Positions 10,301 through 48,147 of a stretch of 64,000 nucleotides of DNA are shown piece after piece (within the stretch, counting starts at the first letter, position 1; each line of letters starts with the position of its first letter). The position numbers were made by a program, and so were the translations under genes. The stretch is from Chloroflexota bacterium (GTDB lineage: Bacteria; Chloroflexota; Chloroflexia; QHBQ01; JADMIH01): assembly GCA_027317125.1 (NCBI GenBank), contig DAHVFG010000002.1:880-64879 (forward strand), written 5' to 3'. The notes beneath the pieces are model-generated. The model was given only the letters and a program-made list of their open reading frames with translations. It was not told the origin of the DNA and did not search any database.

Positions 10301-10366
10301 TGCTTTGCGCCTTTGCCTTCCCTCGCGACCTCTATTTAGATGTAATCGCCCTGGACTCAGTACTGA

Positions 10367-10501
10367 GTAACTGTTCAGATTTAGGGTGGAGCAATCTTCT
10401 TGGGGTATCTGTACGCCCTCACCCCATGCCCCTCTCCCACAAGGGAGAGGGGCATGGGGTGAGGGGAGGGACGCCCCTGCACCCATACTCTGAACGCTTA
10501 C
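10367..10501. mobile_element. MITE copy B (one-module form)
   Basis: TIRs gtaactgttcaga / tctgaacgcttac. 8-bp repeat AGTACTGA at 10359-10366 and 10502-10509. That flank is itself part of a palindrome, so a TIR extension cannot be excluded here. Core ccctctcccacaagggagaggg. Confidence 0.8.
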
Positions 10502-10515
10502 AGTACTGATGTCAG

Positions 10516-10544
10516 TTGACTATTCAATTACCCGATGCTAAACT
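10516..10544 (+). promoter_or_regulatory. Sigma-70-type promoter of iolG
   Basis: TTGACT (10516-10521), 17-bp spacer, TAAACT (10539-10544). ATG of iolG at 10576. The -35 starts 6 bp after the MITE B TSD. Confidence 0.6.
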
Positions 10545-10575
10545 GGCTGGAGTTTCCCCTTATGAGGTTGTGTAC

Positions 10576-11604
10576 ATGACGATTCCCTTGAATGTCGCGT
10601 TGATAGGCGCTGGGCGCATCGGCCAGGTTCACGCCGATAACCTGGCCCGTGCTGTACCTCTTGCCCGTCTGGCAGGCATTGCCGATGTAAACGAACGAAC
10701 GGCCCAGGAAACGGCCCAGCGCGTGGGCTGCCCTCGCTGGACCACTGATGCGTTGGAGTTGATACGCGACCCGAGTGTGAATGGCGTGGTGATAGCCAGC
10801 CCCAACGCCACGCACGCCAGCCTGATTATCGCCTCAGCCGAGGCGGGTAAGCCGATCTTCTGCGAGAAACCGATTGATCGCGACCTGGCAAGAACCGATG
10901 AAGCGCTGGCCGCCGTTAGAGCCGCGGGCGTGCCTTTGCAGCTGGGCTTCCAAAGGCGTTACGATGCCGCGCATGTGTATTCGCAGCGCATGGTAGCCGA
11001 GGGTAAGCTTGGACGCCTCCTCCTCGTACACTCCCATACCCGCGACCCGGAGCCGCCGCCCGCGACTATACTCGCCGATTCAGGCGGGATATTCAAGGAT
11101 ACGTCTGTACACGATTTCGACGCCCTGCGCTGGATAGTGGGCGAGGAGATAGTGGAGGTCACAGCTACTGCGTCGGTTGGCCCCGCCACCGGCTTCACCT
11201 CCTCCGGTGAGCCTGACATGGCGGCTATTACCGTACGATTCGCAAACGATGTCATCGGGCAGATAGATGCTGTGCGGGGCGTGCTTTACGGCTACGATGT
11301 ACGTACCGAGATAATAGGGTCGGAAGCATCGGTTATGGGGGGTTATCATAACGCCACACCTGTCACGTTGTTCCGGCCCGACGCTGTTATACAGGATCAC
11401 GTGTTCTGGTTCCCCCAGCGCTTCGGCCAGGCCTATCTGGACGAGTTGAAGGCCTGGGCTGAGAACGTGACGGGGGGTAAGCCCGTCAGCCCCACAGGGT
11501 TCGACGGTCGCCAGGCCCTGGTAGTTGCGCAGGCGGCTGAGGAGAGCGTGAGGCGGGGCGGCCAGGCCATCAAAGTGCCCGCGCCCTCCAAAGCGCCATG
11601 CTAA
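10576..11604 (+). CDS. iolG: Inositol 2-dehydrogenase (Gfo/Idh/MocA family)
   Basis: N-terminal Rossmann motif VALIGAGRIGQVHADNLA and EKP motif (FCEKPI). iol genes nearby. Start at 10576 has GAGG 8 nt upstream; the ORF is open from 10516. Confidence 0.8.
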   Translation: MTIPLNVALIGAGRIGQVHADNLARAVPLARLAGIADVNERTAQETAQRVGCPRWTTDALELIRDPSVNGVVIASPNATHASLIIASAEAGKPIFCEKPIDRDLARTDEALAAVRAAGVPLQLGFQRRYDAAHVYSQRMVAEGKLGRLLLVHSHTRDPEPPPATILADSGGIFKDTSVHDFDALRWIVGEEIVEVTATASVGPATGFTSSGEPDMAAITVRFANDVIGQIDAVRGVLYGYDVRTEIIGSEASVMGGYHNATPVTLFRPDAVIQDHVFWFPQRFGQAYLDELKAWAENVTGGKPVSPTGFDGRQALVVAQAAEESVRRGGQAIKVPAPSKAPC

Positions 11605-11623
11605 GCTATCCTGATGGCGGGGA

Positions 11624-12766
11624 TCAAGAGGCTGCCTGGAAAGTGACCGGCAGGTGCTTTACGCCGTAGACGATAGCGCTGCCGGTGGCTTCGAGAGGCG
11701 TAGCGACATCCAATTTAATTTCTCTCAGCCGTTCCAGCATTAGCGTTATAGCGATTTTGCTTTCCAAGCGGGCGAGCGGCGCGCCAATGCAAAAGTGAAT
11801 GCCATGCCCGAAGGCGAGGTGCCTGTTCGGCGTCCTGCTGATGTCAAAGCGGTCGGGATCGGGGAACTGGGCTTCGTCGCGATTGGCCGAGCCGATCTGC
11901 GCGAGCACCATCTGGCCTTTGCGGATCTGCTCAGCACCGAGGGTCACATCAGCAGCGGCCCTGCGGTACATCATCTGTACAGGCGAGCGGTATCGCAAGA
12001 CTTCTTCGATAGCGGCGGGCATCAATTCGGGTGTGGCCCGCAACTGCTCCATGATCCCAGGGTTCTCGTTGAAGCAGAGAATAGCGTTGCCGATGAGGTT
12101 GGTGGTGGTTTCGTTCCCCGCCACGAGCAGCAGGATACAAAAGCCCAGCAACTCGCGCTGCGTCAGGTGTACTCCGTCGATTTGAGCTTCCAGTAAGGCG
12201 CTTATGAGGTCGTTCTTTCCCTCGTGGTGTTGCTCAATCAGTCCCAGGAAGTAACCGCTCATTTCGGCTTGCGGGTTGGTGGCGCCTCCGACGCCGGCTC
12301 CGACGATAGCATCAGACCAGGCTTTGAAGCGTGAGCGATCCTCCTGTGGTATTCCCAGCATTTCTGCGATCACAATCACGGGTAAGGGGTAGGCCAGGTC
12401 GTCAATCACGTCCATGCGTCCCTGGGCGACTACTCGGGCAAGCAGCTCGTTTACAATAGCAGTGATACGCTCCGAGAGAGCCGCCACAGCACGCGGAGTG
12501 AAAGCCTGCGTCACCAGGTTGCGCAGTTGCCGGTGCCGTGGTGGATCCATCGAAATCACGCTGGCGCTCAAAGGGTCGTCCTCATTCTCCCCGCCGCTAA
12601 AATTCGAAGAGAATGCGGCATGGTCAGAGAGGACGCGCATAACGTCGTTATAGCTGAACACCTGCCAGGTGTCATATGGCTCAAGGTAATAAACCGGGTG
12701 CATCTCACGCATCAGGCGGTAAGCCGGAAAGGGGTTTAGCCGCTGATCCTCAATAATTTTCTGCAC
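11624..12766 (-). CDS. Cytochrome P450
   Basis: Heme-binding loop FGHGIHFCIGAPLARLE, AGNETT (I-helix) and EVLRY (ExxR). GTG start with AGGAGGAG 7 nt upstream. Confidence 0.9.
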   Translation of the reverse strand: MQKIIEDQRLNPFPAYRLMREMHPVYYLEPYDTWQVFSYNDVMRVLSDHAAFSSNFSGGENEDDPLSASVISMDPPRHRQLRNLVTQAFTPRAVAALSERITAIVNELLARVVAQGRMDVIDDLAYPLPVIVIAEMLGIPQEDRSRFKAWSDAIVGAGVGGATNPQAEMSGYFLGLIEQHHEGKNDLISALLEAQIDGVHLTQRELLGFCILLLVAGNETTTNLIGNAILCFNENPGIMEQLRATPELMPAAIEEVLRYRSPVQMMYRRAAADVTLGAEQIRKGQMVLAQIGSANRDEAQFPDPDRFDISRTPNRHLAFGHGIHFCIGAPLARLESKIAITLMLERLREIKLDVATPLEATGSAIVYGVKHLPVTFQAAS

Positions 12767-13016
12767 CGTGTATGCTCCTCCTATCTATCGATTTTTAGAT
12801 AGCTTCTCCGGTTATTATCCGGCACAAAGATAATCACGTCAAAGCTGCGGGTTATGGTTCAGCCGAACGATGAATAGACCCTACAAAGTAAGCAATATTA
12901 CTGATGTACAACCAGCCTGTATCTGTTATATGTTGTTGGAAAGTGGACCGAGAGCCAGGATGATAACCGAGGAGGGAGCAGAAATGGACTGTATCAGCAG
13001 CATAGGAGCAGCAGCC

Positions 13017-13328
13017 ATGAGCCAGTCGCCCGAATATGACCCTGATGCAGTACTGAAAGTTGCGGCGCAGTCGCACCCCAATGCTATTGCCGGGGCAATC
13101 GCCGGCATAATACGCAGCCGAGGCCACGTTGAGATACAGGCAATCGGCCCAGGAGCAATTAACCAGGCGATCAAAGCTGTGGCTGTGGCGCGCGGCTATC
13201 TCCGCCCTGACTGCATAGAAATCGGCTTCATTCCATCCTTCTTCGAGGTTACAATCGGCGGCCAAGAAAGGACTGCTATGCGCCTGTTGGTCGAAGTGCA
13301 CACAGCAATCGCCCAGGATGAAATCTAG
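13017..13328 (+). CDS. spoVS: SpoVS family protein
   Basis: LKVAAQSHPNAIAGAIAGIIRSRGHVEIQAIGPGAINQAIKAVAVARGYL...TAMRLLV aligns along the whole of B. subtilis SpoVS as I remember it. Start at 13017 (AGGAG 8 nt upstream) or 12984; the ORF is open from 12870. Confidence 0.85.
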   Translation: MSQSPEYDPDAVLKVAAQSHPNAIAGAIAGIIRSRGHVEIQAIGPGAINQAIKAVAVARGYLRPDCIEIGFIPSFFEVTIGGQERTAMRLLVEVHTAIAQDEI

Positions 13329-13476
13329 GAAGAGCGCCTGCAACAGGTGGAAGCAGCGTTCAGTGCCCTGCCTCAAGGCCGTGTGGAAATTTGCGCCACG
13401 CCTGTGTCCTCCTCCGGATAATGGACGCAGGCCTTCCAGGGCGCGAGCGGATGTGGAAAACTCTGGTAACAGGCTA

Positions 13477-13505
13477 TTGACAGAGCAAGCAAGGGGCAGT
13501 ATACT
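13477..13505 (+). promoter_or_regulatory. Near-consensus sigma-70 promoter with no downstream CDS
   Basis: TTGACA (13477-13482), exact 17-bp spacer, TATACT (13500-13505). Confidence 0.7.
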
Positions 13506-13511
13506 AAGGCT

Positions 13512-13595
13512 ACTTCGAGATTACAACTTCGGTTGTAGGATCGAAGGAACAGGAACCCAGACGGTCCTCACGGATTGTTTGGGTTTTCTGTTTGT
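13512..13595 (+). ncRNA. Candidate small RNA (~85 nt): UUCG-capped hairpin plus intrinsic terminator
   Basis: Hairpin 1 (13513-13546): CUUCGA-GA-UUACAAC-UUCG-GUUGUAG-GA-UCGAAG. Hairpin 2 (13554-13585): 14-bp stem AACCCAGACGGUCC/GGAUUGUUUGGGUU with 3 G-U pairs that form only on the + strand, loop UCAC, then UUCUGUUUGU. No ATG or ORF. Confidence 0.55.
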
Positions 13596-13869
13596 GCTTC
13601 GCCCCACTCCGTCGGGTCGGCCGTTAATGCAGCTTTGCTCTGGGAGTTCAGGCAGTACTCGCCAGGTGATACGGTGGGTACAAAGCCAGGATTACTCAGT
13701 ATGCGTAAAGTAAGCTGTTAACCTGCCTTGCGCATTGGGGCGTTTGGCGAACAAACCGTGCGTTGTCACTCTGAACGCGGTCAAAATGACAATGACGAGA
13801 GGACCTGTCCAGGCTTACTTTCAAGCTGACCGAGAGAGGCGTCTGGCGTTAGTTGTCCCTCGCCTTGCA

Positions 13870-15072
13870 TCATGTGCACTGTTGACTGGCCGGGGGTTGT
13901 AATACAAGCGGAGTGCCCTCGGCTGCTAACCGCTCCAGCAGTGCCGTCGGATATTCCAGGCCCGGCAGTTCCTCTATCTCCTTTCGTAGGCGTTGTGCAG
14001 CTCGCCTGTAAGCTGGGTCGTATAACACTTCACGTGCAGCGTCCCCTATAGCCACGGCGCTGCGCCTCTCCGCCTCTATAACATGCGCCACCCCTAGCTC
14101 GGCGCAACTCTGGGCATTCTCCGGTTGGTCAGCAGCTATAGGGATAATCACCATCGGTAGGCCGAGGCTGAGAGCGTCCATCATTGTACCGGAGCCTCCA
14201 TGCGAGATTACCAGGTCGCAGTAGGGAAGCAACAACTTTTGAGGGATATAGCGTTCTACGTGCACATGCGCCGGCTGCTCGCCAAAATCCAGTGGATTTT
14301 GGTTGCGGCCAATAGTAATTATCAAGTTGATTGGTTCTTCTCGGAGAGCTTCAAGAATGGCCGAGTGGATCGGGGTCATATGGTTGAATACAGTGCCGAG
14401 GGTGGCGTATACAGTAGGTCGCTGCCCCAATTTGGCGACCCACCCCGGCAATTTTTCTTCGCCAGATTGACTGAACCCTGTATATCGAAATGGATGAGTG
14501 GTGGGTGGAACGGGAGACGATCGGCTCCAGAGGCTCGGTGGGCGTGGGGAGAGCAACAGATAGCGATAGAGCACATCAGCCGTCTCCGCGGGAGGGAGGC
14601 CGACTGATGCACGCAGTTGGTGGAGTGGTTCAGCCATTACCTCCAAAAAGCGCGTTCGGGCCGCCGTTATCTGGACGGCGGCGTGCGGGACCCCGTCGCA
14701 TTCGGCGGCGACGCAGCCCGCGAGCTCGGTGTTCTCCCGCACCACAACGTCGGGACGCCAGTCGCGTATAATGCCCAGCATGTCGGGGAGCGCGCGCTGT
14801 GCTCTTACGCCGGCGAAGACATACTTCAACGTAAAGTATGCCGGCTCCTGTGGGCCAAGCCCCGCCATTTGTTCTCTGCGCTGCCGCACTTCTTCATCGC
14901 TATCATCAACCCCCGCACGAAAACACCGGAAGCCGCTGGCCTCTATAACCGGGCGGAACCCCTGTGTTGAAGCGAATGCAACTTCGTGGCCTGACATTTC
15001 CAATGCCCGTGCAAGCGGGACGAGTGGGTGCCAGTGGCCGGAGCTTGGCTGACTGGTAAAGAGAACTCGCAT
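13870..15072 (-). CDS. GT1-family glycosyltransferase (MGT / UDP-glycosyltransferase type)
   Basis: 400 aa. C-terminal donor-binding signature HGGSGTMMDALSLGLPMVIIPIAADQPENA. Confidence 0.85.
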   Translation of the reverse strand: MRVLFTSQPSSGHWHPLVPLARALEMSGHEVAFASTQGFRPVIEASGFRCFRAGVDDSDEEVRQRREQMAGLGPQEPAYFTLKYVFAGVRAQRALPDMLGIIRDWRPDVVVRENTELAGCVAAECDGVPHAAVQITAARTRFLEVMAEPLHQLRASVGLPPAETADVLYRYLLLSPRPPSLWSRSSPVPPTTHPFRYTGFSQSGEEKLPGWVAKLGQRPTVYATLGTVFNHMTPIHSAILEALREEPINLIITIGRNQNPLDFGEQPAHVHVERYIPQKLLLPYCDLVISHGGSGTMMDALSLGLPMVIIPIAADQPENAQSCAELGVAHVIEAERRSAVAIGDAAREVLYDPAYRRAAQRLRKEIEELPGLEYPTALLERLAAEGTPLVLQPPASQQCT

Positions 15073-15164
15073 GGTGTTACCTCACATTACACGTGGTGGA
15101 GTGGGAGACGAGCTCCTCAGCGCTCATCGCCGGTCCTTAGCCCCCATTACTCGCAAACGAGGGT

Positions 15165-15200
15165 CCCTTGCAGCACCCCTTATCTGAACAGTACAGTTAC
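15165..15200. repeat. Right-end remnant of an older MITE (E-like subfamily)
   Basis: cccttgcagcaccccttatctgaacagtacagttac ends in ..tctgaac..ttac at 15200, directly abutting the AAAGCTAT target of copy C. No recognisable left end. Confidence 0.45.
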
Positions 15201-15208
15201 AAAGCTAT

Positions 15209-15443
15209 GTAAGTGTTCAGACTCAGGGTGGAGGGGCTAGCTTAGCCCCCTCTCCCTTCATGGGAGAGGGGGTTTGGGGGTGAGGGTGCGTAACGGTACG
15301 CCTCCACAGCTACTCCTTGCAGATTGCTACACCCCAACTCCTCTAAAAATGAGAAGGGTAGTAGTATAAAGGGGTGCTAAATCACTCGTATTTTCATTCG
15401 TAATGGTGACCCATAGGGTCATGGCTTACTCTGAACACTTACA
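15209..15443. mobile_element. MITE copy C (one module, ~90-bp extra internal segment)
   Basis: TIRs gtaagtgttcaga (15209-15221) / tctgaacacttac (15431-15443). Perfect 8-bp TSD AAAGCTAT at 15201-15208 and 15444-15451. Confidence 0.85.
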
Positions 15444-15457
15444 AAGCTATTCATACT

Positions 15458-15486
15458 GGACATAGACCTCGTAGAAGCGTACGATA
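15458..15486 (+). promoter_or_regulatory. Putative sigma-70-type promoter of the iolB operon
   Basis: TGGACA (15458-15463), 17-bp spacer, TACGAT (15481-15486). The -35 starts 6 bp after the MITE C TSD. iolB ATG at 15565. Confidence 0.5.
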
Positions 15487-15564
15487 AAGCTATACGAAAA
15501 GAGTGGGAAGCCAGACAACGAAATCTGAAACGTAACACACCTCATGTGATCAAGGAAGTGCTCC

Positions 15565-16470
15565 ATGCGCCAGTACAACGCAGATAACTTGATTGTTCAC
15601 CCGGGCAACTCATCTGAGCCTGATGTGGTCGTGGAGGTGACCCCTGAGATCGCCGGTTGGAACTACATTCACTTCCAGGTGCGCCGCCTTGAGCCTCAGC
15701 GCTCCTGGGCCTTCAATACCTCTGACAATGAGCTTGCGGTTGTGGTGCTGGGCGGCAGCCTGAGCGTCGCGTCGAACAGAGGCAAATGGCCGCAGGTGGG
15801 GCAGAGGAAGAACGTCTTCAGTGGCCTCCCCGCTGCCCTCTATCTCCCGCCGCACACCTCCTTCAGCGCGACGGCAGTGGCCGTCTGCGACTTCGCGGTC
15901 GCCTGGGCCTCCGCGGACCAGGATTACCCCCCCCGCCTTGTCACCCCCGCCGATGTTGAGGTTGAGATTCGTGGCGGCGATAACGCCACAAGACAGATCA
16001 ACAGCCTCCTGCCGCCCGGTTTCCCCTGCCAGAGGCTGGTGATCGTCGAGGTATACACGCCCGGCGGCAACTGGTCCAGCTACCCGCCGCATAAGCATGA
16101 CGTTCATAAAACCGACCCACAAGGCAAGCTTCTTGAGGCCGACCTGGAAGAGGTCTATTACTACAAGATAGATCGCCCGGAGGGTTATGCCTTACAGCGC
16201 ATCTATACCGCCCCCGAGTCGCCTTTGCACCGCGCCGGCTTTCCAATGGATAGTGTGCTTGTGCTGCGAGATAACGATGTGGCGCTGGTCCCTGAAGGCT
16301 ACCACCCGGTAAGCAGCCCGCCCGGCTACACCACCTATTACCTCAATGTGCTGGCGGGCAGTGCCCAATCGCTTGCTAACAGCGACGACCCGCAGTACTC
16401 ATGGGTCAAAGAGAGCTACCGGAGAGTGGACACGCGAGTGCCATTATACGATATATCAGATAAAGGTTAA
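15565..16470 (+). CDS. iolB: 5-deoxy-glucuronate isomerase
   Basis: 301-aa cupin-type protein (YPPHKHD...EEVYYY) in the position expected in an iol operon. AAGGAAG RBS. Confidence 0.8.
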   Translation: MRQYNADNLIVHPGNSSEPDVVVEVTPEIAGWNYIHFQVRRLEPQRSWAFNTSDNELAVVVLGGSLSVASNRGKWPQVGQRKNVFSGLPAALYLPPHTSFSATAVAVCDFAVAWASADQDYPPRLVTPADVEVEIRGGDNATRQINSLLPPGFPCQRLVIVEVYTPGGNWSSYPPHKHDVHKTDPQGKLLEADLEEVYYYKIDRPEGYALQRIYTAPESPLHRAGFPMDSVLVLRDNDVALVPEGYHPVSSPPGYTTYYLNVLAGSAQSLANSDDPQYSWVKESYRRVDTRVPLYDISDKG

Positions 16471-16474
16471 CATA

Positions 16475-32316: not shown

Positions 32317-33540
32317 TCAGGGTAGCAAACCGGCAGTCATGTGCCATAAGCGCACCGTGCCATCGTCGGACGCCGAAGCAAGGGTCCGCCCATCTGGTGC
32401 CCAGGCGACACTGTTCACCTGGGCATTATGCCCTCTGAGGGTTGCCCACAATGTGCCATTGGCTAGCCACAAGCGCACCGCCTTATCATTGCTGCCCGAA
32501 GCTAGCAGACCCCCGGTGCGGTTCCAGGCCACGCTGCTTACCGATGCCCTGATCGACAGGTGATTGGCTATCGTGGTGCCATCCGGCTTCCAGAAACTCA
32601 CGCCGTTGCCGCCCGCCAGGGTTCGGCCATCGGGTGACCATGCGAGAGCGTCCACGTTCCCATTATTTTGTATGCTCGTGGTTACATTGCCTGCGGTATC
32701 GTAGATTTCGATATTTCCGCTCTCGTCGCCTATCGCCCAGCGGGTGCTATCTGGCGACCAGGCCAGCGCCCAGGCGGGTGTACCTCCTGCGGTGTGAGCT
32801 ACCTCTACACCATCGGCACGCCACAGCTTGTAATCGGTGGCCCCTCCGACTAGCCACTTGCCGTCGGGCGACCAGGCCAGATTGAAGAACTTGCCGCCAC
32901 TGTCCAGAGTACGCATCGTACGCAGCAAGGTGCCGTCGGGCCGCCAGAGTTGCACGGTGGGCATAGGGAAAGTCACGATCGAAGCTACAGCCAACGTCTT
33001 GCCATCGGGCGACCAGGCCAGGCCAAAGACAGTACCGGCCCCGCTGTTTATGGTGCGGGCCGGAGAGCCATCACGGTGCCACAAGCGAACGGTTTGGTCC
33101 CGTGAACCCGATGCCAGCAGGGTGCCATCAGGCGACCACGCCAGGCTAAAAATGCCGTCCGTGTGGCCTCGCAAGGCGGGAAGTGGAGTGCCGTCAGACT
33201 TCCACAGGCGCACCTGTGGGTCTCCTCCATTACTTCCCAGCGCGCCTGAGCCTGCGGCCAGGAAAGTGCCATCCGGCGACCATACCAGGCTGGTGACAGG
33301 CGTAATGATGCCGGTTAGCAGGGTTGAGGTGATTGCCGGGCCGATTTGCGTCGCCGTGGGCGGGGTGGGCGACAGGGCTTGGCTTGTGCTCGTCGGCCCA
33401 GGTGGCGTCTCACCCGCCGTGGTTTGAGCGCGGGTAGCGCTTGGGACGGGGCGGGTATCAGGCGCGGGACCAGGGGCAGAGCTGAGCTCGCAGCCGGAAC
33501 TCAGCGTCAGCAACATCACAAGGACAAGAGCGCGAGCCAT
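32317..33540 (-). CDS. WD40-repeat beta-propeller lipoprotein
   Basis: Lipobox LTLSSGC, a Thr/Pro-rich linker, and repeated WSPDG..LASGS.D.TVRLW units. Confidence 0.85.
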   Translation of the reverse strand: MARALVLVMLLTLSSGCELSSAPGPAPDTRPVPSATRAQTTAGETPPGPTSTSQALSPTPPTATQIGPAITSTLLTGIITPVTSLVWSPDGTFLAAGSGALGSNGGDPQVRLWKSDGTPLPALRGHTDGIFSLAWSPDGTLLASGSRDQTVRLWHRDGSPARTINSGAGTVFGLAWSPDGKTLAVASIVTFPMPTVQLWRPDGTLLRTMRTLDSGGKFFNLAWSPDGKWLVGGATDYKLWRADGVEVAHTAGGTPAWALAWSPDSTRWAIGDESGNIEIYDTAGNVTTSIQNNGNVDALAWSPDGRTLAGGNGVSFWKPDGTTIANHLSIRASVSSVAWNRTGGLLASGSNDKAVRLWLANGTLWATLRGHNAQVNSVAWAPDGRTLASASDDGTVRLWHMTAGLLP

Positions 33541-33591: not shown

Positions 33592-33620
33592 ATCTTATAC
33601 TATGGTGCACCACATGTCAA
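33592..33620 (-). promoter_or_regulatory. Putative sigma-70-type promoter of the WD40 lipoprotein gene
   Basis: On the minus strand: TTGACA (33620-33615), 17-bp spacer, TAAGAT (33597-33592). The -35 lies 6 bp from the MITE D TSD. Confidence 0.5.
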
Positions 33621-33634
33621 GACCAATTGAGGGC

Positions 33635-33798
33635 GTAAGTGTTCAGGTTAGGGGTATAGCAATCTTCAAGGAGTGGCTGTGGAGGCGTACCCTTACATAC
33701 CCTTACGTACCCTCACCCCCAACCCCCTCTACCTTCATGGGAGAGGGGGTTGGGGGTGAGGGGCGGGACACCTCTGCACCCTTACTCTGAACACTTAC
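33635..33798. mobile_element. MITE copy D (one-module form)
   Basis: TIRs gtaagtgttcagg / tctgaacacttac. Perfect 8-bp TSD TTGAGGGC at 33627-33634 and 33799-33806. Confidence 0.85.
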
Positions 33799-33806
33799 TT
33801 GAGGGC

Positions 33807-33907
33807 GTAAGGATTCAGATTTTGGGTTGAGAAGCTGTGCGGGTAAGAGCGGGGCGCTGCTTTGCCCTTGCAGTTACATCGTCTGTACCCTAATCCTGAA
33901 CGTTTAC
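33807..33907. mobile_element. MITE copy E (short variant lacking the CCCTCTCCC module)
   Basis: gtaaggattcagattttgggt ... accctaatcctgaacgtttac. Left flank TTGAGGGC vs right flank TTCAGTGC (6/8 identical). Confidence 0.65.
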
Positions 33908-39329: not shown

Positions 39330-39485
39330 CTTGTCCTCCCGACTTACCATTAGTGGTTACAGCAGATATTCTACGACAAAGTTCCAAAGTTAGACAGGCC
39401 GTTGAAAGATGAACATGGGGATTTGCCGATCTGGGCAAAGACCTTTGCCTTCAGTTTAGAGCAATAGCCTGCTCGCCTCTATAAA

Positions 39486-39715
39486 GTAGGTGTTCAGCGT
39501 AGGGGTGGAGGGCTAAGCCCTTGATGGGATTACAGGAGCCAAGCCCTTGTGCACTCCCCATGAGTAAAGCCCCCTCTCCCTTCATGGGAGATATACTCCC
39601 CAGCAATAAAGCCCCCTCTCCCTTCATGGGAGAGGGGCATGGGGTGAGGGCAGATGGCGCAACACCCGCACGGATATCCCAGGAAGATTGCTCCGCCCCA
39701 ACTCTGAACATTTAC
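39486..39715. mobile_element. MITE copy F (two-module form, inverted relative to copy A)
   Basis: TIRs gtaggtgttcagc / tctgaacatttac. Perfect 8-bp TSD TCTATAAA at 39478-39485 and 39716-39723. The internal segment is the reverse complement of copy A's inter-module segment. Confidence 0.85.
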
Positions 39716-39729
39716 TCTATAAATCGCTC

Positions 39730-39759
39730 TTGACAGGAGCTTGCTGCCCATGTTATATA
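39730..39759 (+). promoter_or_regulatory. Sigma-70-type promoter of the tetR-ABC operon
   Basis: TTGACA (39730-39735). The -10 is TGtTATATA (extended-10-like, 39751-39759; 18-bp spacer). The -35 starts 6 bp after the MITE F TSD. Confidence 0.65.
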
Positions 39760-39777
39760 ATTGATTGACCAATCAAT
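39760..39777. promoter_or_regulatory. 18-bp perfect palindrome, probable TetR operator
   Basis: ATTGATTG-AC-CAATCAAT lies immediately downstream of the -10 and 19 bp upstream of the tetR ATG. Confidence 0.65.
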
Positions 39778-39795: not shown

Positions 39796-40440
39796 ATGTC
39801 GCCATCACGGGACGAGCAGGATTATGAGGGCAAGCGCCAGCAGATCATCGATGGTGCGCTGAGCGTCTTTGCCCGCAAAGGCTTCGAGAAGGCTACTAAC
39901 AGAGAGATCGCCGACGCGGCGCGGATCGGCTCGCCGGGGCTGATTTACCATTACTTCAACGACAAGGCCGACCTCTTTCGACAGGTGCTAGAGGAGCGCG
40001 CTCCTGCCTTGCAGTTGGTCATGCATGGCGATGAGATGATGGATTTGCCGCCGCGCCAGGTGCTCACCACGCTCGGTAACTCATTCCTGGCAACGCTCGG
40101 TGGACCTGTGCCGATAGCGATGTTCAAGATGATGCTGGGCGAGGCGGTGCGGCGTCCGGTAGTGGCCGAGATGTTCAACAAGATCGGGCCTGGGCGCGGC
40201 CTCAGCTTCCTGGCTCGTTACCTGGCTCACCAGATGGACCTCGGCGTGCTGCGCCGCACCGACCCCGGAGCCGCGGCTCGCTGCTTTATGGGCCCTCTGC
40301 TGCTGTTTCTGCTAACACAGCAGGTATTCGTGCAACCGGATGCCTCATCGCTGAGCGGTGAGACGATGGTTGTCACGGCCGTAGACATTTTTCTCTCCGG
40401 TATGCAGGTAAACGAGGAGGAGAGAGAAGAGAGCGTCTAA
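39796..40440 (+). CDS. TetR/AcrR family transcriptional regulator
   Basis: N-terminal HTH (GFEKATNREIADAARIGSPGLIYHYF). Confidence 0.9.
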   Translation: MSPSRDEQDYEGKRQQIIDGALSVFARKGFEKATNREIADAARIGSPGLIYHYFNDKADLFRQVLEERAPALQLVMHGDEMMDLPPRQVLTTLGNSFLATLGGPVPIAMFKMMLGEAVRRPVVAEMFNKIGPGRGLSFLARYLAHQMDLGVLRRTDPGAAARCFMGPLLLFLLTQQVFVQPDASSLSGETMVVTAVDIFLSGMQVNEEEREESV

Positions 40441-42452: not shown

Positions 42453-42560
42453 TTCCATCTGACCACTATAGAGATACGGAGGCTCAGTGACAGCTTCTCG
42501 ACCGGTTTATTGTGCAGATGCCGTTTGCTCCGATACCCCGGAGGGCTGGACCTTGCCCTT

Positions 42561-44150
42561 ATGAAAATTGACAAAGGACCCTGGCTCTTTGGATCGTTCT
42601 TCCTGGGCGGCTTCGAGTGCTCGACCCACCTTACTCTTGAGGGCCATCGCCTCGATATGATAGCCGCTACGCAGCACGACCTGCTCGCGCAGGAAGACTA
42701 CCGCCTCTGTCGTGCCGCCGGTATCAACGCAATCCGCGAGTCGGCCCGGTGGCCCATTGCAGACCGGCGTGGCGCGCTACATCTCGGAAGTGTGCGTAAG
42801 CTCGCGAGGCTGGGCAGAGAGGAGGGCATGATACAAATCTGGGACCTGATGCACTACGGTTACCCGGACGACCTGGACCCCTTCTCAACTGAGTTCGTTA
42901 CGCGCTTTGCGGCGTTTGCGAGAGCGGTTGCAACGATCGTGCGCGAGGAGAGCGAAGGCCAAAGCTGGTATACGCCCATCAATGAAATATCGTACACGGC
43001 CTGGGCAGCAGGCGAGGTCGGATATATGGCTCCTTTCGCGCATAGTCGTGGAGGTGACTATAAGCGCGTGCTGGTGAAAGCCGCAATCGCGGCCACAAAT
43101 GCTATTTGGGAGGTAGACCCCGCCGCCTGTATACTCACAGTGGACCCACTTGTGCATCTACACGCGCCGGTGGGGAGGCCCGACTTGAAGCCCCAGGCTG
43201 ACTTTTTCAATCGTTATGTAGTAACAGAAGCGTTTGACCTTCTTGCGGGGCGCATTGAGCCGGAACTGGGAGGGAGCAAGGCCCACCTCGGCGTCGTAGG
43301 TTTCAACTACTACGCAGGTAACCAGTGGACTATCCCTACACCTGAGCTACCGCAGCGTTTCCTGGATTGGGCTGACCCTCAGTGGGTGCCACTTAGCCGG
43401 ATGCTGGTTGAGCTTGGGGCGCGCTACGAGGCGCCGCTCATAATCGCTGAGACAGGCTCCTCCGCTGATGAACGAGCGCTCTGGCTGGCTCACCTGACGG
43501 GCGAAGTGCAGCAGGCGCTGGCGGAAGGTGTGAATCTACAGGGCATCTGTCTCTATCCCGTCATAAGCTCCCCTGATTGGGAGGACCCGACGGCTTTCTT
43601 CGATGGGGGCGTCTTTGACGTAGCGCCGCAGCCCGGCGGCAAGCTAACACGCGTGCTTTCTCCTGTTGTTGCGGGCGCTCTCCACTCGGCTCAGGACATC
43701 CTCGATCCAGGCCACACTATAGATGGAGCGCTTCTACGCATTGAGGGGCAGGAAGCAGCAGTTACGACCTATGGTTTCGTGAAGCCTCTCGAAAGCGTGC
43801 GCTTCAAACCCGACAACTTTTCCTACCGAACCCTCGCCGCGGGCAACGATTTGATTGTTGAGGTATATGGTTTCGAGCCGGGAGGCTCACTCCCGTCTCA
43901 TCGCCACAACCAGACGGAGCACGTCTTGACTTTTCTGTCAGGCAGGGGCGCTGTGTGCATCGGCGACCGGTGCATCAAGGTGCAGGAGGGAGAGAGCATA
44001 GTGATCCCCGCAGGGCTGTACCACAGCATAATCAACTACACCACGCAGCGCCTGGTTGTCCAGCAGGTGAGCGCGCCCAGGCCCTGGGACGCTCGCTTCG
44101 ACGGCCCCCACCCCGCCAACCTTGAGGCGGCAGGCTCCCAGGGCGGCTGA
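42561..44150 (+). CDS. GH1-like TIM-barrel protein fused to a C-terminal cupin domain
   Basis: N-terminus FLGGFECSTH and IIAETGS resemble GH1-like proteins. C-terminal HRHNQTEHVLTFLSG..GESIVIPAGLYH is cupin-like. The ORF is open from 42510. Confidence 0.5.
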   Translation: MKIDKGPWLFGSFFLGGFECSTHLTLEGHRLDMIAATQHDLLAQEDYRLCRAAGINAIRESARWPIADRRGALHLGSVRKLARLGREEGMIQIWDLMHYGYPDDLDPFSTEFVTRFAAFARAVATIVREESEGQSWYTPINEISYTAWAAGEVGYMAPFAHSRGGDYKRVLVKAAIAATNAIWEVDPAACILTVDPLVHLHAPVGRPDLKPQADFFNRYVVTEAFDLLAGRIEPELGGSKAHLGVVGFNYYAGNQWTIPTPELPQRFLDWADPQWVPLSRMLVELGARYEAPLIIAETGSSADERALWLAHLTGEVQQALAEGVNLQGICLYPVISSPDWEDPTAFFDGGVFDVAPQPGGKLTRVLSPVVAGALHSAQDILDPGHTIDGALLRIEGQEAAVTTYGFVKPLESVRFKPDNFSYRTLAAGNDLIVEVYGFEPGGSLPSHRHNQTEHVLTFLSGRGAVCIGDRCIKVQEGESIVIPAGLYHSIINYTTQRLVVQQVSAPRPWDARFDGPHPANLEAAGSQGG

Positions 44151-44187
44151 GGCGATTTGCTCAGGGGTGGCGACTGAGCAAATCGCC
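44151..44187 (+). terminator. 14-bp-stem hairpin immediately after the stop codon
   Basis: ggcgatttgctcag / ctgagcaaatcgcc with a 9-nt loop and a weak U-tract. Confidence 0.5.
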
Positions 44188-44350
44188 CTCCTCGTTATAT
44201 ACGCGGGTCCTGGATGAGAAGCAGTATAAGGTGGGGTGCCGCTCTGGTACCATCTACCTATTCCGCTTTACACATTAGAACGCTACAATGAAACAGCTAA
44301 AGGTGCGGGCTGATCACTCTTCGGAGTGATCGGTCCGCGCTGTCTCTCTC

Positions 44351-44440
44351 CACAGGAAAAAGGCAAACTCGTCGAAAGGCGAGGACGCAAAGCCATTGGA
44401 TCTAAGGCTCATTAGAGCTATGACAGCCAGGTTGCCCGGC
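44351..44440 (+). promoter_or_regulatory. c-di-GMP-I (GEMM-I) riboswitch aptamer
   Basis: CACAGG..AAAGGCAAAC, then CUCGUC-GAAA-GGCGAG hairpin (44368-44383), GACGCAAAGCC (44384-44394), tetraloop-receptor-like UCUAAG..CUAUGA around the GGCUC/GAGCU hairpin, and AGCCAGGUUGCC (44425-44436). This is collinear with the V. cholerae Vc2 aptamer as I recall it. Confidence 0.8.
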
Positions 44441-44520
44441 AATGACATATTTGCCACTGCGCTATTACAACGTTGACAGTGTGGCTTTATCGTCGCCCAA
44501 AATTGCCTGCAACGGCTGTC

Positions 44521-44537
44521 GTTCCTCAAGGAGGAAC
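44521..44537 (+). promoter_or_regulatory. SD-sequestering hairpin at the SLH gene start
   Basis: GUUCCUC-AAG-GAGGAAC. The right arm is the SD (AAGGAGG), 1 nt before UAUG (ATG 44539). Confidence 0.6.
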
Positions 44538-44538
44538 T

Positions 44539-46509
44539 ATGTACGTTTGCAGCAGTAGCAGTCACCCACAAAGCGAGCGGCTGACATGCGCCCCTCCCCA
44601 CTGCGAAAGCAGTGAGCCTTCTTGTCCACAGTTCCCCTGGGCGCAGCCGAAAAGCCGCGCGGTCCGGTTAGTCCTCCTTGCTATTCCTGTGCTGGCGTTC
44701 TACTTTGGCGGTTTATACACTCCCGCCGGAGCAGCTGCAGCGTCTGAACCGCCGTGCGGGCGCACCCAGTTTGTTGATGTTTGCACCGGCGACTGGTTTT
44801 ATCCGCCAGTCAGCGACCTGACCGCGATTGGCGCGATCTCCGGCTACGCCGACGGAACTTTTCAGCCGAACAATAACGTAACACGCGCCCAGCTCGCAAA
44901 AATTGTAGTGCTCTCCACAGAATTAGATGGGCCGCTCCCCTCTACCAACACCTTTGCTGATGTGCCTGCAACCAACGTCTTCTTCCCCTGGGTCGAAGTT
45001 GGGGCCGCGAACGGGCTGGTATCGGGCTATAGCTGCGGAGGGCCGGGAGAGCCTTGTGACGACTTGCGGCGGCCCTATTTTCGGCCCACCGCCATCGCGA
45101 ATCGAGGGCAGGTTGCCAAAATGGTCATGCTCGCCGGCGGCTCAGACCCCTACTTTCCAGATGTTCCTCTCTTCGCCGATGTGCCAGCCGACAACCCCTA
45201 CTATGGTTATGTGAACAGTGTGAGCCGTGACGGTATAATCAGTGGCTACTCTTGTGGAGGACCGGGAGAGCCTTGCGACGCCCAGAACACCCCATACTTC
45301 AGGCTTTACAATACAACGACAAGAGCTCAGGCTTCTAAGATGATCGATCGTGTGCGAGGCCATCGCGCCACCCCTTCCCCTACGGCCACACGCTCCACAA
45401 CCACTACGACCCGCACCCGCACCCCTGGCGCGACGTCTACGTACGTGCCAACACAGACGCCTCAGGCGAGCACTACCCGTACGCCTTCGCGAACTCCCAG
45501 CCGAACGCCAACTACTGCCGCGTGGACAGCTACTCGCACCGCGACTCCCTCAGGCGGCACGCCTACAGCATCATCTACTATACCCCCTGGCGGTTCGGGG
45601 ATAACAGCCAATGACCCTATACCCTGCCCACTCTATCCCGCGGATAACATCTGGAACAAACGAATTGATGCGCTCCCCACTCAGATTATGTCGGATGCAT
45701 ACGTAGCCACGATAGGCACGAATGGAACGCTGCACTCGGGTTTCGCGATGGGGATGTGGCAGGGCTTCTCTATTGGCAACCCTTACAACGCGGTAGCTAC
45801 GGCCCAACCGATGGCGGTGATCACTTTTACCGACTACCCTAGCCAGAGTGACCCAGGGCCCTATCCTTTCCCCGATGGTGCGCTCATCGGCGGGGCCACA
45901 TGGCTCACGCCCGTGCCGACCAGCGGTGACAGACATGTGTCCATCGTGAGAGGAGGGGACTGCACTCTCTTCGAGACGTGGCATTCAAGTCCTGTGGGCC
46001 CCGGTGAGTGGACAGCGGCCAACGGCGCTATCTTCAACCTTAACTCCAACGCCCTCAGGCCCGATGGCTGGACCTCTGCGGACGCCGCGGGCTTCGCGAT
46101 ACTACCCGCGCTTATCAAGTACGATGAAGTAGAGGCGGGGCTGATCACGCACGCCGTGCGGGTTACAGCGCCAATGAACACGATTCGCAGCAGCCACGTG
46201 TGGCCCGCACGGCACTCCGACGGCACCAACAGCAGCTCGAGCGCACCCCCCATGGGTACACGCTTCAGGCTGAAGGCTAACGTTGACATATCCAGCTTCA
46301 CACCCCGCCTTCAAGTGATCTTGCAGGGGCTAAAGAGCTACGGAATGTTCCTGGCCGACTCGGGTGACGCATGGCAGATAGATGGCACGCCCGACCAGCG
46401 TTGGGATGACAGCGAGCTGTACGACCTCAACCGCTTGCCTGGCTCCGATTTCGAGGCGGTAGATGAGTCGGGCCTTATGATAGACCCCAACTCCGGCCAG
46501 AGCCGCTAA
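44539..46509 (+). CDS. SLH-domain cell-surface protein with Thr/Pro-rich linker and uncharacterised C-terminal domain
   Basis: Three SLH repeats (F.DV...GYADGTFQPNNNVTRAQLAKIVV etc.) and linker TRSTTTTTRTRTPG...TPSRTPSRTP. Start at 44539 with a strong AAGGAGG; the ORF is open from 44473. Confidence 0.8.
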   Translation: MYVCSSSSHPQSERLTCAPPHCESSEPSCPQFPWAQPKSRAVRLVLLAIPVLAFYFGGLYTPAGAAAASEPPCGRTQFVDVCTGDWFYPPVSDLTAIGAISGYADGTFQPNNNVTRAQLAKIVVLSTELDGPLPSTNTFADVPATNVFFPWVEVGAANGLVSGYSCGGPGEPCDDLRRPYFRPTAIANRGQVAKMVMLAGGSDPYFPDVPLFADVPADNPYYGYVNSVSRDGIISGYSCGGPGEPCDAQNTPYFRLYNTTTRAQASKMIDRVRGHRATPSPTATRSTTTTTRTRTPGATSTYVPTQTPQASTTRTPSRTPSRTPTTAAWTATRTATPSGGTPTASSTIPPGGSGITANDPIPCPLYPADNIWNKRIDALPTQIMSDAYVATIGTNGTLHSGFAMGMWQGFSIGNPYNAVATAQPMAVITFTDYPSQSDPGPYPFPDGALIGGATWLTPVPTSGDRHVSIVRGGDCTLFETWHSSPVGPGEWTAANGAIFNLNSNALRPDGWTSADAAGFAILPALIKYDEVEAGLITHAVRVTAPMNTIRSSHVWPARHSDGTNSSSSAPPMGTRFRLKANVDISSFTPRLQVILQGLKSYGMFLADSGDAWQIDGTPDQRWDDSELYDLNRLPGSDFEAVDESGLMIDPNSGQSR

Positions 46510-46565
46510 GTATACCTCAGAAGGGAATTGTAGAAGTGGAGAGGCACCGAGCAACCAATAAGCGC

Positions 46566-46598
46566 AAGCCCGCCTGTAGTTCAACTACAGGCGGGCTT
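46566..46598. terminator. Bidirectional intrinsic terminator between convergent genes
   Basis: aagcccgcctgtagt / actacaggcgggctt is a perfect 15-bp stem, followed by tttat. Confidence 0.75.
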
Positions 46599-46631
46599 TT
46601 ATGCGGCCCAGAGTACTAAGGTGCGAGAATA

Positions 46632-47249
46632 TTAGGCTGTGGCGCTGACGTTGGTTTCGGCCTCAGCTTCTTTCTCCGCCTGCTCTGTGCTCTTCACGGC
46701 CTCGATGTTCAGGTCAAGCTTGACCTTATCGCCGACCAGCACGCCGCCTGTCTCCAGGGCCACGTTCCAGTTGAGATCAAAGTCCTTGCGGTTGACAGTG
46801 GTTGTGGCGGAGAAGCCTATGGCCTCCGCGCCGTAGGGAGTTACACCGCGCCCCTCGTAGGTGGTGTTGAGGGTAACTTCTTTGGTTATGCCACGTATCG
46901 TGAGGTCACCGACGATGTTGTACTCGTCACCTCCCTTAGGCTCGATGCGTTTGCTCTTGAAGGTGATAGTCGGGTACTGCTCTACCAGAAAGAAGTCGCC
47001 TGAGCGCATGTGCGTGTCACGCTGCTCAGCGCCTGTGGTGATGGTTGCTACCTGGATCGTGGCCTCGACTGAGGAGTTCGCGATCTTCTCCTCGTCGAAT
47101 CGAATAGTGCCTTCTACATCAGGGAACCGGCCCCGCACGTTGGCGATCATCATGTGCTTGGCGACGAACTCCACTGTGCTGTGAGCGGCGTCTATCTTCC
47201 ATGTGCTTGTCTTGATATTTGTCGGGGTTTGTACGATTGTGTTAGCCAT
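46632..47249 (-). CDS. YceI family protein
   Basis: WKIDAAHSTVEFVAKHMMIANVRGRF N-terminal signature. AGGAGG RBS. Confidence 0.85.
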   Translation of the reverse strand: MANTIVQTPTNIKTSTWKIDAAHSTVEFVAKHMMIANVRGRFPDVEGTIRFDEEKIANSSVEATIQVATITTGAEQRDTHMRSGDFFLVEQYPTITFKSKRIEPKGGDEYNIVGDLTIRGITKEVTLNTTYEGRGVTPYGAEAIGFSATTTVNRKDFDLNWNVALETGGVLVGDKVKLDLNIEAVKSTEQAEKEAEAETNVSATA

Positions 47250-47317
47250 TTATCGCCTCCTACTTATTGTTTAACTATCTACTATTTATACGTCAACTAT
47301 GGGGCCAAAAAGAACAT

Positions 47318-47806
47318 CTAGTGCTGTCTGATGGAATTGTCCAGCGTCTGGAGTATCTCGCGTAATGCAGCCAGTTGTTGGGGTGTCAGCCCCGACATGT
47401 GCTCGCGAACGAACTCGCTATAAGCAGGTACAGCTTCCTTCGCCAGTCTTTCGCCCTCTGCCGTCAGATGAAGCAAGTTAGGGCGGCGGTCTTCGGGATC
47501 GCTACGCCTCTCCACAAGACCATGAGCCGACATTCTGTCAATAAGCCCACACACGTTGCCTTTTGTAACAAGCAACTTCTGGGCCAGAGCCTGCTGGGTT
47601 ATACCTTGCTCCTGGCTGAGCAGAGCCAGCACGTCATACTGGGCGAGCGTCAGGTCGTAATTATCGAGGTGGTCCATCAGGTGACGTTGCATCTTATCGT
47701 AGACGCGCACCAGATATAACCACGCAGACATTGACGAACCACACGCCTCACCTAGCTGCTGAGGCGGCGCTTCCGTTGTGATCTCTGTCTCCATAAAATT
47801 GCTCAT
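47318..47806 (-). CDS. MarR family transcriptional regulator
   Basis: Winged HTH (LTLAQYDVLALL...GITQQALAQKLLVTKGNVCGLIDRM...GLVERR.DPEDRR). Confidence 0.9.
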   Translation of the reverse strand: MSNFMETEITTEAPPQQLGEACGSSMSAWLYLVRVYDKMQRHLMDHLDNYDLTLAQYDVLALLSQEQGITQQALAQKLLVTKGNVCGLIDRMSAHGLVERRSDPEDRRPNLLHLTAEGERLAKEAVPAYSEFVREHMSGLTPQQLAALREILQTLDNSIRQH

Positions 47807-47820
47807 TCACTTATAGTATA

Positions 47821-47849
47821 TATATAAACTATTTTGCGCGATTTGTCAA
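47821..47849 (-). promoter_or_regulatory. Sigma-70-type promoter of the marR-yceI operon (very short leader)
   Basis: On the minus strand: TTGACA (47849-47844), 17-bp spacer, TATATA (47826-47821). marR ATG at 47806. The -35 lies 6 bp from the MITE G TSD. Confidence 0.65.
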
Positions 47850-47863
47850 GCCCCCGCTAAGCT

Positions 47864-48062
47864 GTAACTGTTCAGAGTAGGGGTAGAGGCAATCTGCAAG
47901 GAGTAGCTGTGGAGGCGTACCCTCACCTAGCCTCACCCTCCCTCACCCCCAAACCCCCTCTCCCATGAAGGGAGAGGGGGCTTTCTCCCTCACCCCATGC
48001 CCCTCTCCCATGAAGGGAGAGGGGGCTAGGCTGGCCCATCCACCCTTAGTCTGAACGCTTAC
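47864..48062. mobile_element. MITE copy G (two-module form)
   Basis: TIRs gtaactgttcaga / tctgaacgcttac. Perfect 8-bp TSD GCTAAGCT at 47856-47863 and 48063-48070. Confidence 0.85.
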
Positions 48063-48147
48063 GCTAAGCTCAGCTCGCATGTTGGATTTTTGCCGCAGCT
48101 TGTTGCCCGCTTACCTTCGGCCAAACGAAAAGAAGGGCTCGGTTGGC

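Follow-up and report, generated by a model that had tools for sequence, protein, structure and literature searches.

An IS66-family insertion sequence of Chloroflexia-type bacteria and its miniature derivatives lie at a fixed register upstream of predicted sigma-70-type promoters

The question raised by this locus is why short mobile repeats should end at one fixed distance from the promoters of their neighboring genes. The window, a stretch of 64,000 nucleotides from a Chloroflexota bacterium (assembly GCA_027317125.1, contig DAHVFG010000002.1, positions 880 to 64,879), contains nine short elements, named A to I, which were located by a repeat scan and terminus searches and are bounded by GTAANNGTTCAG...CTGAACNNTTAC. 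These nine copies in 64 kb measure 91-234 bp and encode nothing, and perfect 8-bp target-site duplications (TSDs) flank seven copies (A, B, C, D, F, G, and H). A first-pass annotation, which treated the repeats as MITEs (miniature inverted-repeat transposable elements), described for five of these seven copies a TSD followed by 6 bp, a TTGACA-like hexamer, a 17-bp spacer, a -10-like hexamer, and then a gene. The coordinates of all elements and promoters were re-read base by base, and this layout holds for the five copies and their target promoters:

10367-10501: MITE B, with TSD AGTACTGA at 10359-10366 and 10502-10509
10510-10544, plus strand: predicted promoter of the iolG-like gene, with spacer TGTCAG, -35 TTGACT at 10516-10521, 17 bp, -10 TAAACT at 10539-10544, and ATG at 10576
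15209-15442: MITE C, with TSD AAAGCTAT at 15201-15208 and 15443-15450
15451-15485, plus strand: predicted promoter of iolB, with spacer TCATAC, -35 TGGACA at 15457-15462, 17 bp, -10 TACGAT at 15480-15485, and ATG at 15565
33635-33798: MITE D, with TSD TTGAGGGC at 33627-33634 and 33799-33806, which reads GCCCTCAA in the minus-strand promoter layout
33592-33626, minus strand: predicted promoter of the WD40 gene, with spacer TTGGTC, -35 TTGACA at 33620-33615, 17 bp, -10 TAAGAT at 33597-33592, and ATG at 33540
39486-39715: MITE F, with TSD TCTATAAA at 39478-39485 and 39716-39723
39724-39761, plus strand: predicted promoter of the tetR-family gene, with spacer TCGCTC, -35 TTGACA at 39730-39735, 17 bp, -10 TTATAT at 39753-39758, and ATG at 39796
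47864-48062: MITE G, with TSD GCTAAGCT at 47856-47863 and 48063-48070, which reads AGCTTAGC in the minus-strand promoter layout
47821-47855, minus strand: predicted promoter of the marR-family gene, with spacer GGGGGC, -35 TTGACA at 47849-47844, 17 bp, -10 TATATA at 47826-47821, and ATG at 47806

The promoter lies to the right of B, C, and F and to the left of D and G, always in the order TSD, 6 bp, -35, 17 bp, -10, gene. At the tetR-family gene an alternative -10, TATAAT at 39756-39761, lies three bases further on with a 20-bp spacer. The adjoining gene products belong by Pfam to the GFO/IDH/MocA (iolG-like), IolB, WD40, TetR, and MarR families, in agreement with the gene names given at first pass. 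Finding at least five of seven copies in register has a chance probability of ∼1.4e-9 (per-copy chance ∼0.9%), which bears out the original judgement that the arrangement is far beyond chance. The geometry of integration, with cuts at about -50 and -42 and the TSD at -49 to -42, likewise stands as first described, and it is independent of the sequence of the MITE interior.

The insertion register is fixed relative to the -35 well beyond the window. Two public scans, one of genomes and one of metagenomes, used patterns made up of element-internal bases only and returned at least 231 loci (L-numbered below); all counts of flanks, paired elements, and stacks cover the window together with the loci among the matches listed. 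Genuine copies came from metagenome-assembled genomes (MAGs) labelled Chloroflexia or Chloroflexota and from one Anaerolineales MAG, and the genome-scan matches in other phyla, which are chance matches to the terminus pattern, served as negative controls. The outward flanks of every high-confidence terminus were scanned at all offsets, where offset 14 corresponds to the 8-bp TSD plus 6 bp. TTGACA, matched at 5/6 or better, occurs at offset 14 in 55 of 322 unique flanks (binomial p 4e-72), and in 51 of 306 when the window loci are left out. The nearby offsets hold 5 flanks (offset 15), 3 (offset 16), and 2 (offset 13), and other offsets average 1.2, never exceeding 4. The first-pass annotation had proposed tabulating the distance from TSD to hexamer genome-wide; over the flanks scanned here the distribution is not flat. 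For TATAAT-like hexamers the maxima fall at offset 37, with 35 flanks, and at offset 38, with 17, and full-promoter calls at offset 14 number 66. Among 48 paired elements with TSDs, a full promoter is called on exactly one side in 31, on both sides in none, and on neither side in 17.

The sharp offset of the -35, together with a -10 at its usual 17/18-bp spacing, indicates a ruler anchored on the -35. A -10 of the form TAnnnT stands in register at 39 of the 55 good -35 sites (71%), as against none at control offsets. For comparison, where the same loci are free of open reading frames (ORFs), 18 of 200 TTGACA-like hexamers (9%) have an in-register TAnnnT, and inside ORFs 60 of 2167 do. Of 45 flanks with a weak -35 (3/6 only), 14 still have a strong -10 in register, again as against none at control offsets. 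From the 71% versus 9%, and from the weak -35s accompanied by a -10, it follows that the target is a complete promoter, not a bare hexamer. When flanks are picked by the -10 alone (n = 63), the -35 composition is T52 T53 G53 A28 C41 A28, a profile that we take to be like ordinary sigma-70 -35 statistics rather than a super-consensus. Besides the two hexamers, the conserved features of the target are a weak hint of TG and a scarcity of C (3/61) at offset 49, approximately the expected +1. The 8-bp TSD and 6-bp spacer have no consensus (information content at most ∼0.3 bit per position), and the reconstructed pre-insertion sites show no conserved sequence between -89 and -36 at the same limit of ∼0.3 bit per position. 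A UP element or other upstream determinant was considered and set aside, nothing having been found from -89 to -36.

The repeats are MITEs of a ∼1.45-kb single-ORF insertion sequence (IS) of the IS66 family, ISBst12-like, in Chloroflexia-type bacteria. Elements of 1428-1502 bp that share these termini are found at many metagenome loci; each has a single ORF of 440-470 aa, starting near position 49 and ending at a stop codon within the right inverted repeat (IRR), and no tnpA or tnpB. The ORF of L198 (469 aa) matches DDE_Tnp_IS66 (PF03050, 1e-48) and zf-IS66 (PF13005, 2e-6), and that of L173 matches the same two domains at 8.5e-47 and 4.8e-7; in both, the transposase stop codon within the IRR (..CCTTTACCCCAAATCTGAACAGTTAC) can be read directly. 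The IRR is GGGGTA(A/G)A in all 11 full-length copies examined, and it equals the left inverted repeat (IRL) over ∼17 nt. The IS66 family is defined by terminal inverted repeats of ∼20-30 bp beginning GTAA(GCG) (PMC11946415), and the ISBst12 group within it by a single transposase ORF without the tnpA/tnpB accessory genes (PMC12898284). Window copies and full-length elements alike begin GTAANNGTTCAG and so have the GTAA-starting terminal inverted repeats (TIRs) of the family. The 8-bp target duplication, perfect at the seven window copies, is found in 52 paired elements overall and is perfect in the full-length L173, L233, and L237. GTAA termini, 8-bp repeats, and a single ORF together place the element in the ISBst12 group. 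The window copies are in turn its MITEs, since they are short, non-coding, and multicopy and share the termini and TSD of the 1.45-kb IS, some of their ends being recognizably IRR-like or IRL-like. The transposase has abundant homologs of 70-100% identity, among them one labelled Roseiflexaceae and another encoded on an 11.26-Mb Chloroflexia chromosome. A tblastn search of plasmids returned only distant haloarchaeal IS66 elements, of no use for testing generality.

The IRL of the parent is itself promoter-like (L233 1448-1500, L237 1453-1500, L198 1773-1725): the element end is followed by 7 nt, the inverted-repeat core TTCA(G/C)A, 17-19 bp, TATAGT or TATGGT, and an ATG at about position 49. 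With this layout the transposase mRNA would be nearly leaderless, the core of the repeat doubling as the -35. In the larger MITE copies the core is a perfect G+C hairpin, CCCCTCTCCC(TTCAT/ATGAA)GGGAGAGGGG, which is duplicated in A, F, and G. The subfamily of element C (window 15330-15442; also L106, L141, and L214) has a promoter-proximal end, GTAAGTGTTCAGAGTAAGCCATGACCC...GGGTCACC, unlike that of the other window copies and contains ∼100 bp of additional internal sequence. The window elements overlap no known RNA family in Rfam.

The promoter-register behavior is not specific to the MITEs and belongs to the autonomous IS66-family parent, where it also has a fixed orientation. At L233, which has a perfect TSD, the IRR flank reads GAATCACG-AAGGGC-TTGACA-17-TATATA and then a TetR gene; at L237, also with a perfect TSD, it reads GCTCATAT-GAGAAT-TTGACC and then a peptidase gene. 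Counted by hand over the unique sites of full-length ISs, a match of 5/6 or better stands at offset 14 in 8 of 14 IRR flanks versus none of 12 IRL flanks (hypergeometric p ∼0.002). The transposase gene and the downstream gene run in the same direction in 6 of 6 long-contig loci, reached through close transposase homologs. Of 36 MITEs with a promoter on one side, 3 are ties; among the 33 that could be scored, 28 have the IRR-like, AT-richer end (GGGGTAAA.. or GGGGTGGAGCAATCTTC..) toward the promoter and 5 the opposite end (p 7e-5). Within the window the IRR-like end of D, G, C, and F faces the promoter; B is the exception, with a GC-rich, non-IRR-like end in that position, as in a few other copies. 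Orientation relative to the promoter is therefore fixed, on the IRR side only in full-length copies and by 28 to 5 in MITEs, and in this larger sample the earlier statement that the promoter side does not follow the internal orientation of the element fails; in the window itself four of the five copies present the same end.

The same site is also hit repeatedly. Among tail-to-head neighbors no more than 40 bp apart, 9 pairs are separated by exactly 8 bp, 3 by 9 bp, 2 by 7 bp, and one each by 16 and 21 bp. Five stacks were inspected by eye (window D/E, L180, L187, L190, and L226); in each, the element nearest the promoter is paired, and the two copies of its TSD agree with no more than one mismatch. 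The window example adds one element to those above:

33807-33907: MITE E, of a short subfamily, beginning exactly 8 bp past D, with flanks TTGAGGGC/TTCAGTGC that match at 6/8

The TSD of D, TTGAGGGC, is also the left flank of E, and the right flank of E, TTCAGTGC, matches it at only 6/8, so E would be an older hit at the same register; it looks as though E inserted first and D, the younger and promoter-proximal member, later used the same 8 bp. Similarly, the left TSD of C abuts a degenerate older element end (..TATCTGAACAGTACAGTTAC, 15181-15200). The exact 8-bp linkers indicate that the same phosphodiesters are used repeatedly. An insertion that leaves the core promoter intact on one side leaves the site a target, and stacks joined by the same 8 bp result. 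This order is what a determinant kept on the promoter side predicts, and post-insertion selection would hardly yield it.

Comparison with relatives bears on whether the promoter was there before the element. The closest iolG homolog (L242, contig JADEYI010001222.1 of assembly JADEYI01; 92% identity) is preceded by TTGACT-17-TAAACT and the same leader with no element, and a 72% homolog (L243) also has the TTGACT promoter and no element. Judged from these orthologs, the predicted target hexamers belong to the host gene and predate the insertion, in line with the first-pass point that the hexamer, lying outside the TSD, is no part of the element. The arrangement does not correspond to a hybrid or outward-reading promoter either, because the -35 lies 14 bp outside the element, past the TSD, and is present in the element-free ortholog. 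This element-free site came by way of the protein homolog, and a search for empty sites among the fetched loci gave only artefacts of TIR similarity. Perfect TSDs, stacks, and the element-free orthologous site are indirect signs of what may be recent mobility. The two loci also differ on the upstream side: compared with L242 1333-9940, the window at 10289-10516 is without an 8.6-kb ABC-transporter/GFO-IDH operon in the interval from a 760-aa gene to the iolG promoter. The two sequences become homologous again exactly at the -35, which puts the right breakpoint inside the 14-bp insertion register, yet the TSDs of MITE B match.

Related elements outside this clade do not share the register. A sister transposase clade (45% identity, collinear, with similar inverted repeats and perfect 8-bp TSDs), whose hosts are labelled Thermomicrobiales, Chloroflexota, and Actinomycetes, has an in-register promoter at none of five independent sites. 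Dehalococcoidia MAGs (L078 7399-7765, L069 4471-4584, L033, and L093) carry a different MITE family of 114-367 bp with the same GTAACNGTTCAGACT termini and clean 8-bp TSDs in L069 and L078. A degenerate 1.46-kb IS66-family element of Leucobacter coleopterorum (NZ_CP049933.1, L099 545-2002) has GTAACTGTTCAG ends, an 8-bp TSD, GTTTTACA, and a broken transposase ORF with a DDE_Tnp_IS66/zf-IS66 fragment, and it adjoins a gene for an 880-aa LuxR-type regulator. Neither the Dehalococcoidia MITEs of L069 and L078 nor the Leucobacter IS has a promoter at the register, and the terminus-pattern matches that arose by chance in unrelated phyla have none in register. Since the sister clade, the Dehalococcoidia MITEs, and the Leucobacter IS are without the pattern, promoter specificity is a derived trait of one clade and not a by-product of intergenic survival or of the search.

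Such a register could be set at integration or sifted out afterwards, and we consider it very likely that selection acts at integration. The retention view, one of three explanations offered at first pass, has the element insert near-randomly in intergenic DNA, with copies ending at about -50 persisting because that end regulates or insulates, for instance as a binding site placed where a class-I activator acts or through an internal hairpin that terminates transcription. Other bacteria have MITEs with known regulatory functions, the TIR would occupy about -50 to -62, and the elements contain a strong G+C hairpin that scores as terminator-like in one copy. This single call (F, 39613-39637, minus strand) lies on the strand that reads away from the neighboring promoter, the wrong orientation to insulate it, and an insulator or terminator role of the hairpin was rejected. 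Selection could not remove neutral off-register intergenic copies, yet offsets outside 13-16 are at background, and the same register is found in full-length ISs, in MITE subfamilies with unrelated interiors, and in stacks with exact 8-bp linkers. Retention predicts neither the 8-bp stacking, nor the orientation rule of the full-length ISs, nor the single-base sharpness, which makes it very improbable and the least likely of the three. That the promoter is instead part of a longer mobile repeat, or a by-product of the terminus search, is a formal possibility, many loci coming from few assemblies, but its probability is close to nil: the flanks share two hexamers only, TSDs differ at every copy, the search patterns contained no flanking bases, the chance matches and the sister clade lack the pattern, and the orthologous promoter is present without the element.

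If the choice is made at integration, something must read the promoter. On balance we favor as probable the reading that the transposition machinery of this clade picks its target by the core promoter, anchored on the -35, most plausibly by way of promoter-bound RNA polymerase; promoter architecture is also the best fit among the three first-pass explanations. The use of whole promoters, the ordinary -35 statistics, and the use of weak -35s with good -10s point to RNA polymerase, and the holoenzyme or sigma may well be the reader, although we place this at somewhat less than an even chance. Direct readout, in which a DNA-binding part of the transposase recognizes a TTGnnn or TTGACA-like hexamer and cuts 6 and 14 bp away, the excess of complete promoters arising from survival in non-coding DNA, would account for a register anchored on the -35 and not the -10, for TTG as the most conserved feature of the target, and for the 16 of 55 good -35 sites without an in-register TAnnnT, and it requires no additional partner for a single-protein IS. 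It also expects many neutral insertions beside promoterless hexamers, which is not the case (9% against 71% for TAnnnT), and the -35 profile is that of ordinary promoters while sites with a 3/6 -35 and a strong in-register -10 are used; a target motif of N8-N6-TTGACA alone is thus insufficient, and we hold direct readout to be unlikely, less so than several alternatives but less likely than RNA polymerase. Another route would be capture of a pseudo-end, where a chromosomal promoter resembles a second IRL and the transposase synapses the IRR with it and inserts alongside. The geometry of the IRL is nearly that of the target (TSD edge, 6 nt, TTGACA, 17 nt, TATAAT), and an IRR abutting the promoter, as IRR-spacer-"IRL", would account for the orientation specificity. 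The register differs by one base, however, the 6-bp spacer has no trace of GTAAGT and the promoter spacer no inverted-repeat sequence, and the IRR binds transposase without any -10. At position 3 of the target hexamer, 53 of 63 sites have G and 1 has C, and the inverted-repeat core has C throughout; on this last ground in particular IRL mimicry is down-weighted as the main mechanism, and we find it decidedly unlikely.

To return to RNA polymerase as the reader, a possible though more tentative model is that the ISBst12-like DDE transposase uses the promoter-bound holoenzyme as its selector and integrates at about -50 in one orientation, as a prokaryotic counterpart of Ty3/Ty1. In the zone from -42 to -49, sigma region 4 meets the C-terminal domain of the RNA polymerase alpha subunit (alpha-CTD) and class I/II activators. 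A complex of transposase and IRR would dock on the holoenzyme, either at sigma region 4 or in the alpha-CTD zone, and make 8-bp staggered cuts that leave 6 bp between the duplicated 8 bp and the first T of a sigma-70-type -35 downstream. The element end would then lie at about -50 with the IRR, containing the transposase stop codon, toward the promoter, and the promoter would read away from the element. The ruler would be anchored on the -35, with the -10 floating by the normal 17/18-bp spacer. This would amount to a safe-haven strategy, in which -50 is the nearest upstream point that spares the core promoter, and a genome would offer thousands of such sites.

Several points weigh against this reading. 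The contact between transposase and RNA polymerase is one that we infer from sequence: the AlphaFold2 model of the transposase (30 close homologs) has a predicted local distance difference test (pLDDT) score of 55 and a predicted template modeling (pTM) score of 0.34, too poor to use, and a profile search of Protein Data Bank sequences returned no relative, the IS66 family being without a solved structure. An additional targeting domain is ruled out, as the targeting and non-targeting clades are collinear, and the transposase thus has no extra domain relative to the sister clade that does not target promoters. All promoters are consensus predictions, the ORF-free control is a crude ORF mask, and the sample leans on few assemblies (JADEYI01 and several Chloroflexia MAGs). 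The -10 enrichment could stem from post-insertion favoring of sites beside live promoters. Finally, the 17 of 48 paired elements noted above, together with A and H of the window, have no recognizable promoter on either side; either targeting is not absolute or old promoters have decayed. These two copies and the remaining one of the window are the following:

222-416: MITE A, with TSD GCTTGCTG at 214-221 and 417-424, neither side having an in-register promoter
53511-53691: MITE H, with TSD GATGCAAT at 53503-53510 and 53692-53699, without a convincing in-register promoter
53761-53851: MITE I, of the short subfamily, with left terminus ATAAGAGTTCAG and flanks TGGTTGCG/CGCAACTG, which form no TSD

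On the right side of MITE I there is an extended -10 (TGATATAAT), out of register. An extended -10-like motif, TGTGATATA(C/A)T, occurs at 186-199 (minus strand, left of A) and at 53881-53890 (right of I), 28 bp and 33 bp from the respective element ends and again out of register. It may mark another type of promoter, one that does not serve as the ruler. Directly right of the TSD of MITE A, at 425-456, a tandem direct repeat, CGCTACATAGTT(A/G)TCT x2, lies 6 bp before the ATG (462) of a glycosyltransferase gene and has an operator-like look. Elsewhere in the window, a c-di-GMP-I riboswitch aptamer (Rfam RF01051, 84 bits, E 4e-15) is found at 44352-44439 on the plus strand, just 5′ of a 678-aa ORF at 44473-46509. 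A 194-nt direct repeat (50116-50309 and 50407-50600; 74% identity, 291 bp apart) lies within a 509-aa ORF at 49314-50843 on the minus strand and is probably an internal protein repeat.

The target choice of bacterial ISs is usually described as near-random, as directed by a short motif, or as tied to one special site. Reading a core promoter to single-base precision and in a preferred orientation would add a new class to the modes of target selection by prokaryotic DDE transposons, in a family that is widespread and mechanistically almost unstudied. Promoter-side targeting would explain how a very high MITE density is reached with little gene damage, and it predicts that core promoters in these genomes are systematically uncoupled from upstream regulatory DNA. 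The insertions would also serve as a promoter annotation, supplied by evolution at no cost, for a phylum that has been little studied. If RNA polymerase or sigma is the reader, the coupling of transposase and holoenzyme is testable and may offer a compact one-protein tool for promoter-proximal integration; if the holoenzyme reading is true, this would be a natural system that marks sigma-70 promoters genome-wide.

The element itself is a member of a known family, the ISBst12 group of IS66 with its derived MITEs, and it is the target rule that is newly described as far as we found. Like ISDge4 of Deinococcus geothermalis and ISBst12 of Geobacillus, it has GTAA ends (ISDge4 GTAACTGCTCAGCA; here GTAACTGTTCAG), 8-bp direct repeats, and a single ORF of ∼450-470 aa with DDE_Tnp_IS66 and zf-IS66 and no tnpA/tnpB; the ISDge4 transposase has 449 aa, and copy-and-paste transposition is reported for it (PMC12898284). 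ISDge4 and an IS66 element of Frankia were recovered within coding regions under selection (PMC12898284, PMC11946415). Unlike the present case, no promoter-anchored or oriented target choice is reported in the IS66 family, and we found no description of -35-registered insertion by bacterial transposons, IS66 papers included, in a search that most subscription journals lay outside; the first-pass remark that such targeting is unfamiliar for bacterial MITEs holds to that extent. Promoter-carrying ISs and MITEs (outward -35s, hybrid promoters, "mobile promoters," and Correia elements) also place an element end beside a promoter that drives the neighboring gene, but here both hexamers are the host's own. 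Tn7/TnsD at attTn7, the IS1202 subgroup at XerCD sites, and IS1397/ISKpn1 and IS110-family elements in repetitive extragenic palindromic (REP) sequences similarly insert at a fixed distance and orientation and spare genes. They recognize one or few specific sequences, in contrast to the generic sigma-70-type promoters used here, with ∼12 loosely conserved bases and thousands of sites. IS911 and IS30 show insertion targeted to inverted repeats, oriented and at a fixed distance from an end-like sequence, and the parent IRL here has a target-like promoter geometry; the target hexamers in our case fit the sigma-70 consensus (G at position 3) and not the inverted-repeat core (C), and no other similarity to the inverted repeats is seen. 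The yeast retrotransposons Ty3 and Ty1, TRE of Dictyostelium, and Tf1 of S. pombe integrate at fixed upstream positions by docking on the transcription machinery. Those are LTR or non-LTR retroelements of eukaryotes whose integrases contact TFIIIB, Pol III, or Sap1, unlike the bacterial DDE transposon described here, for which such a contact is putative, but both integrate at a given distance from where transcription starts, use a safe haven just upstream of genes, and hit the same site repeatedly.

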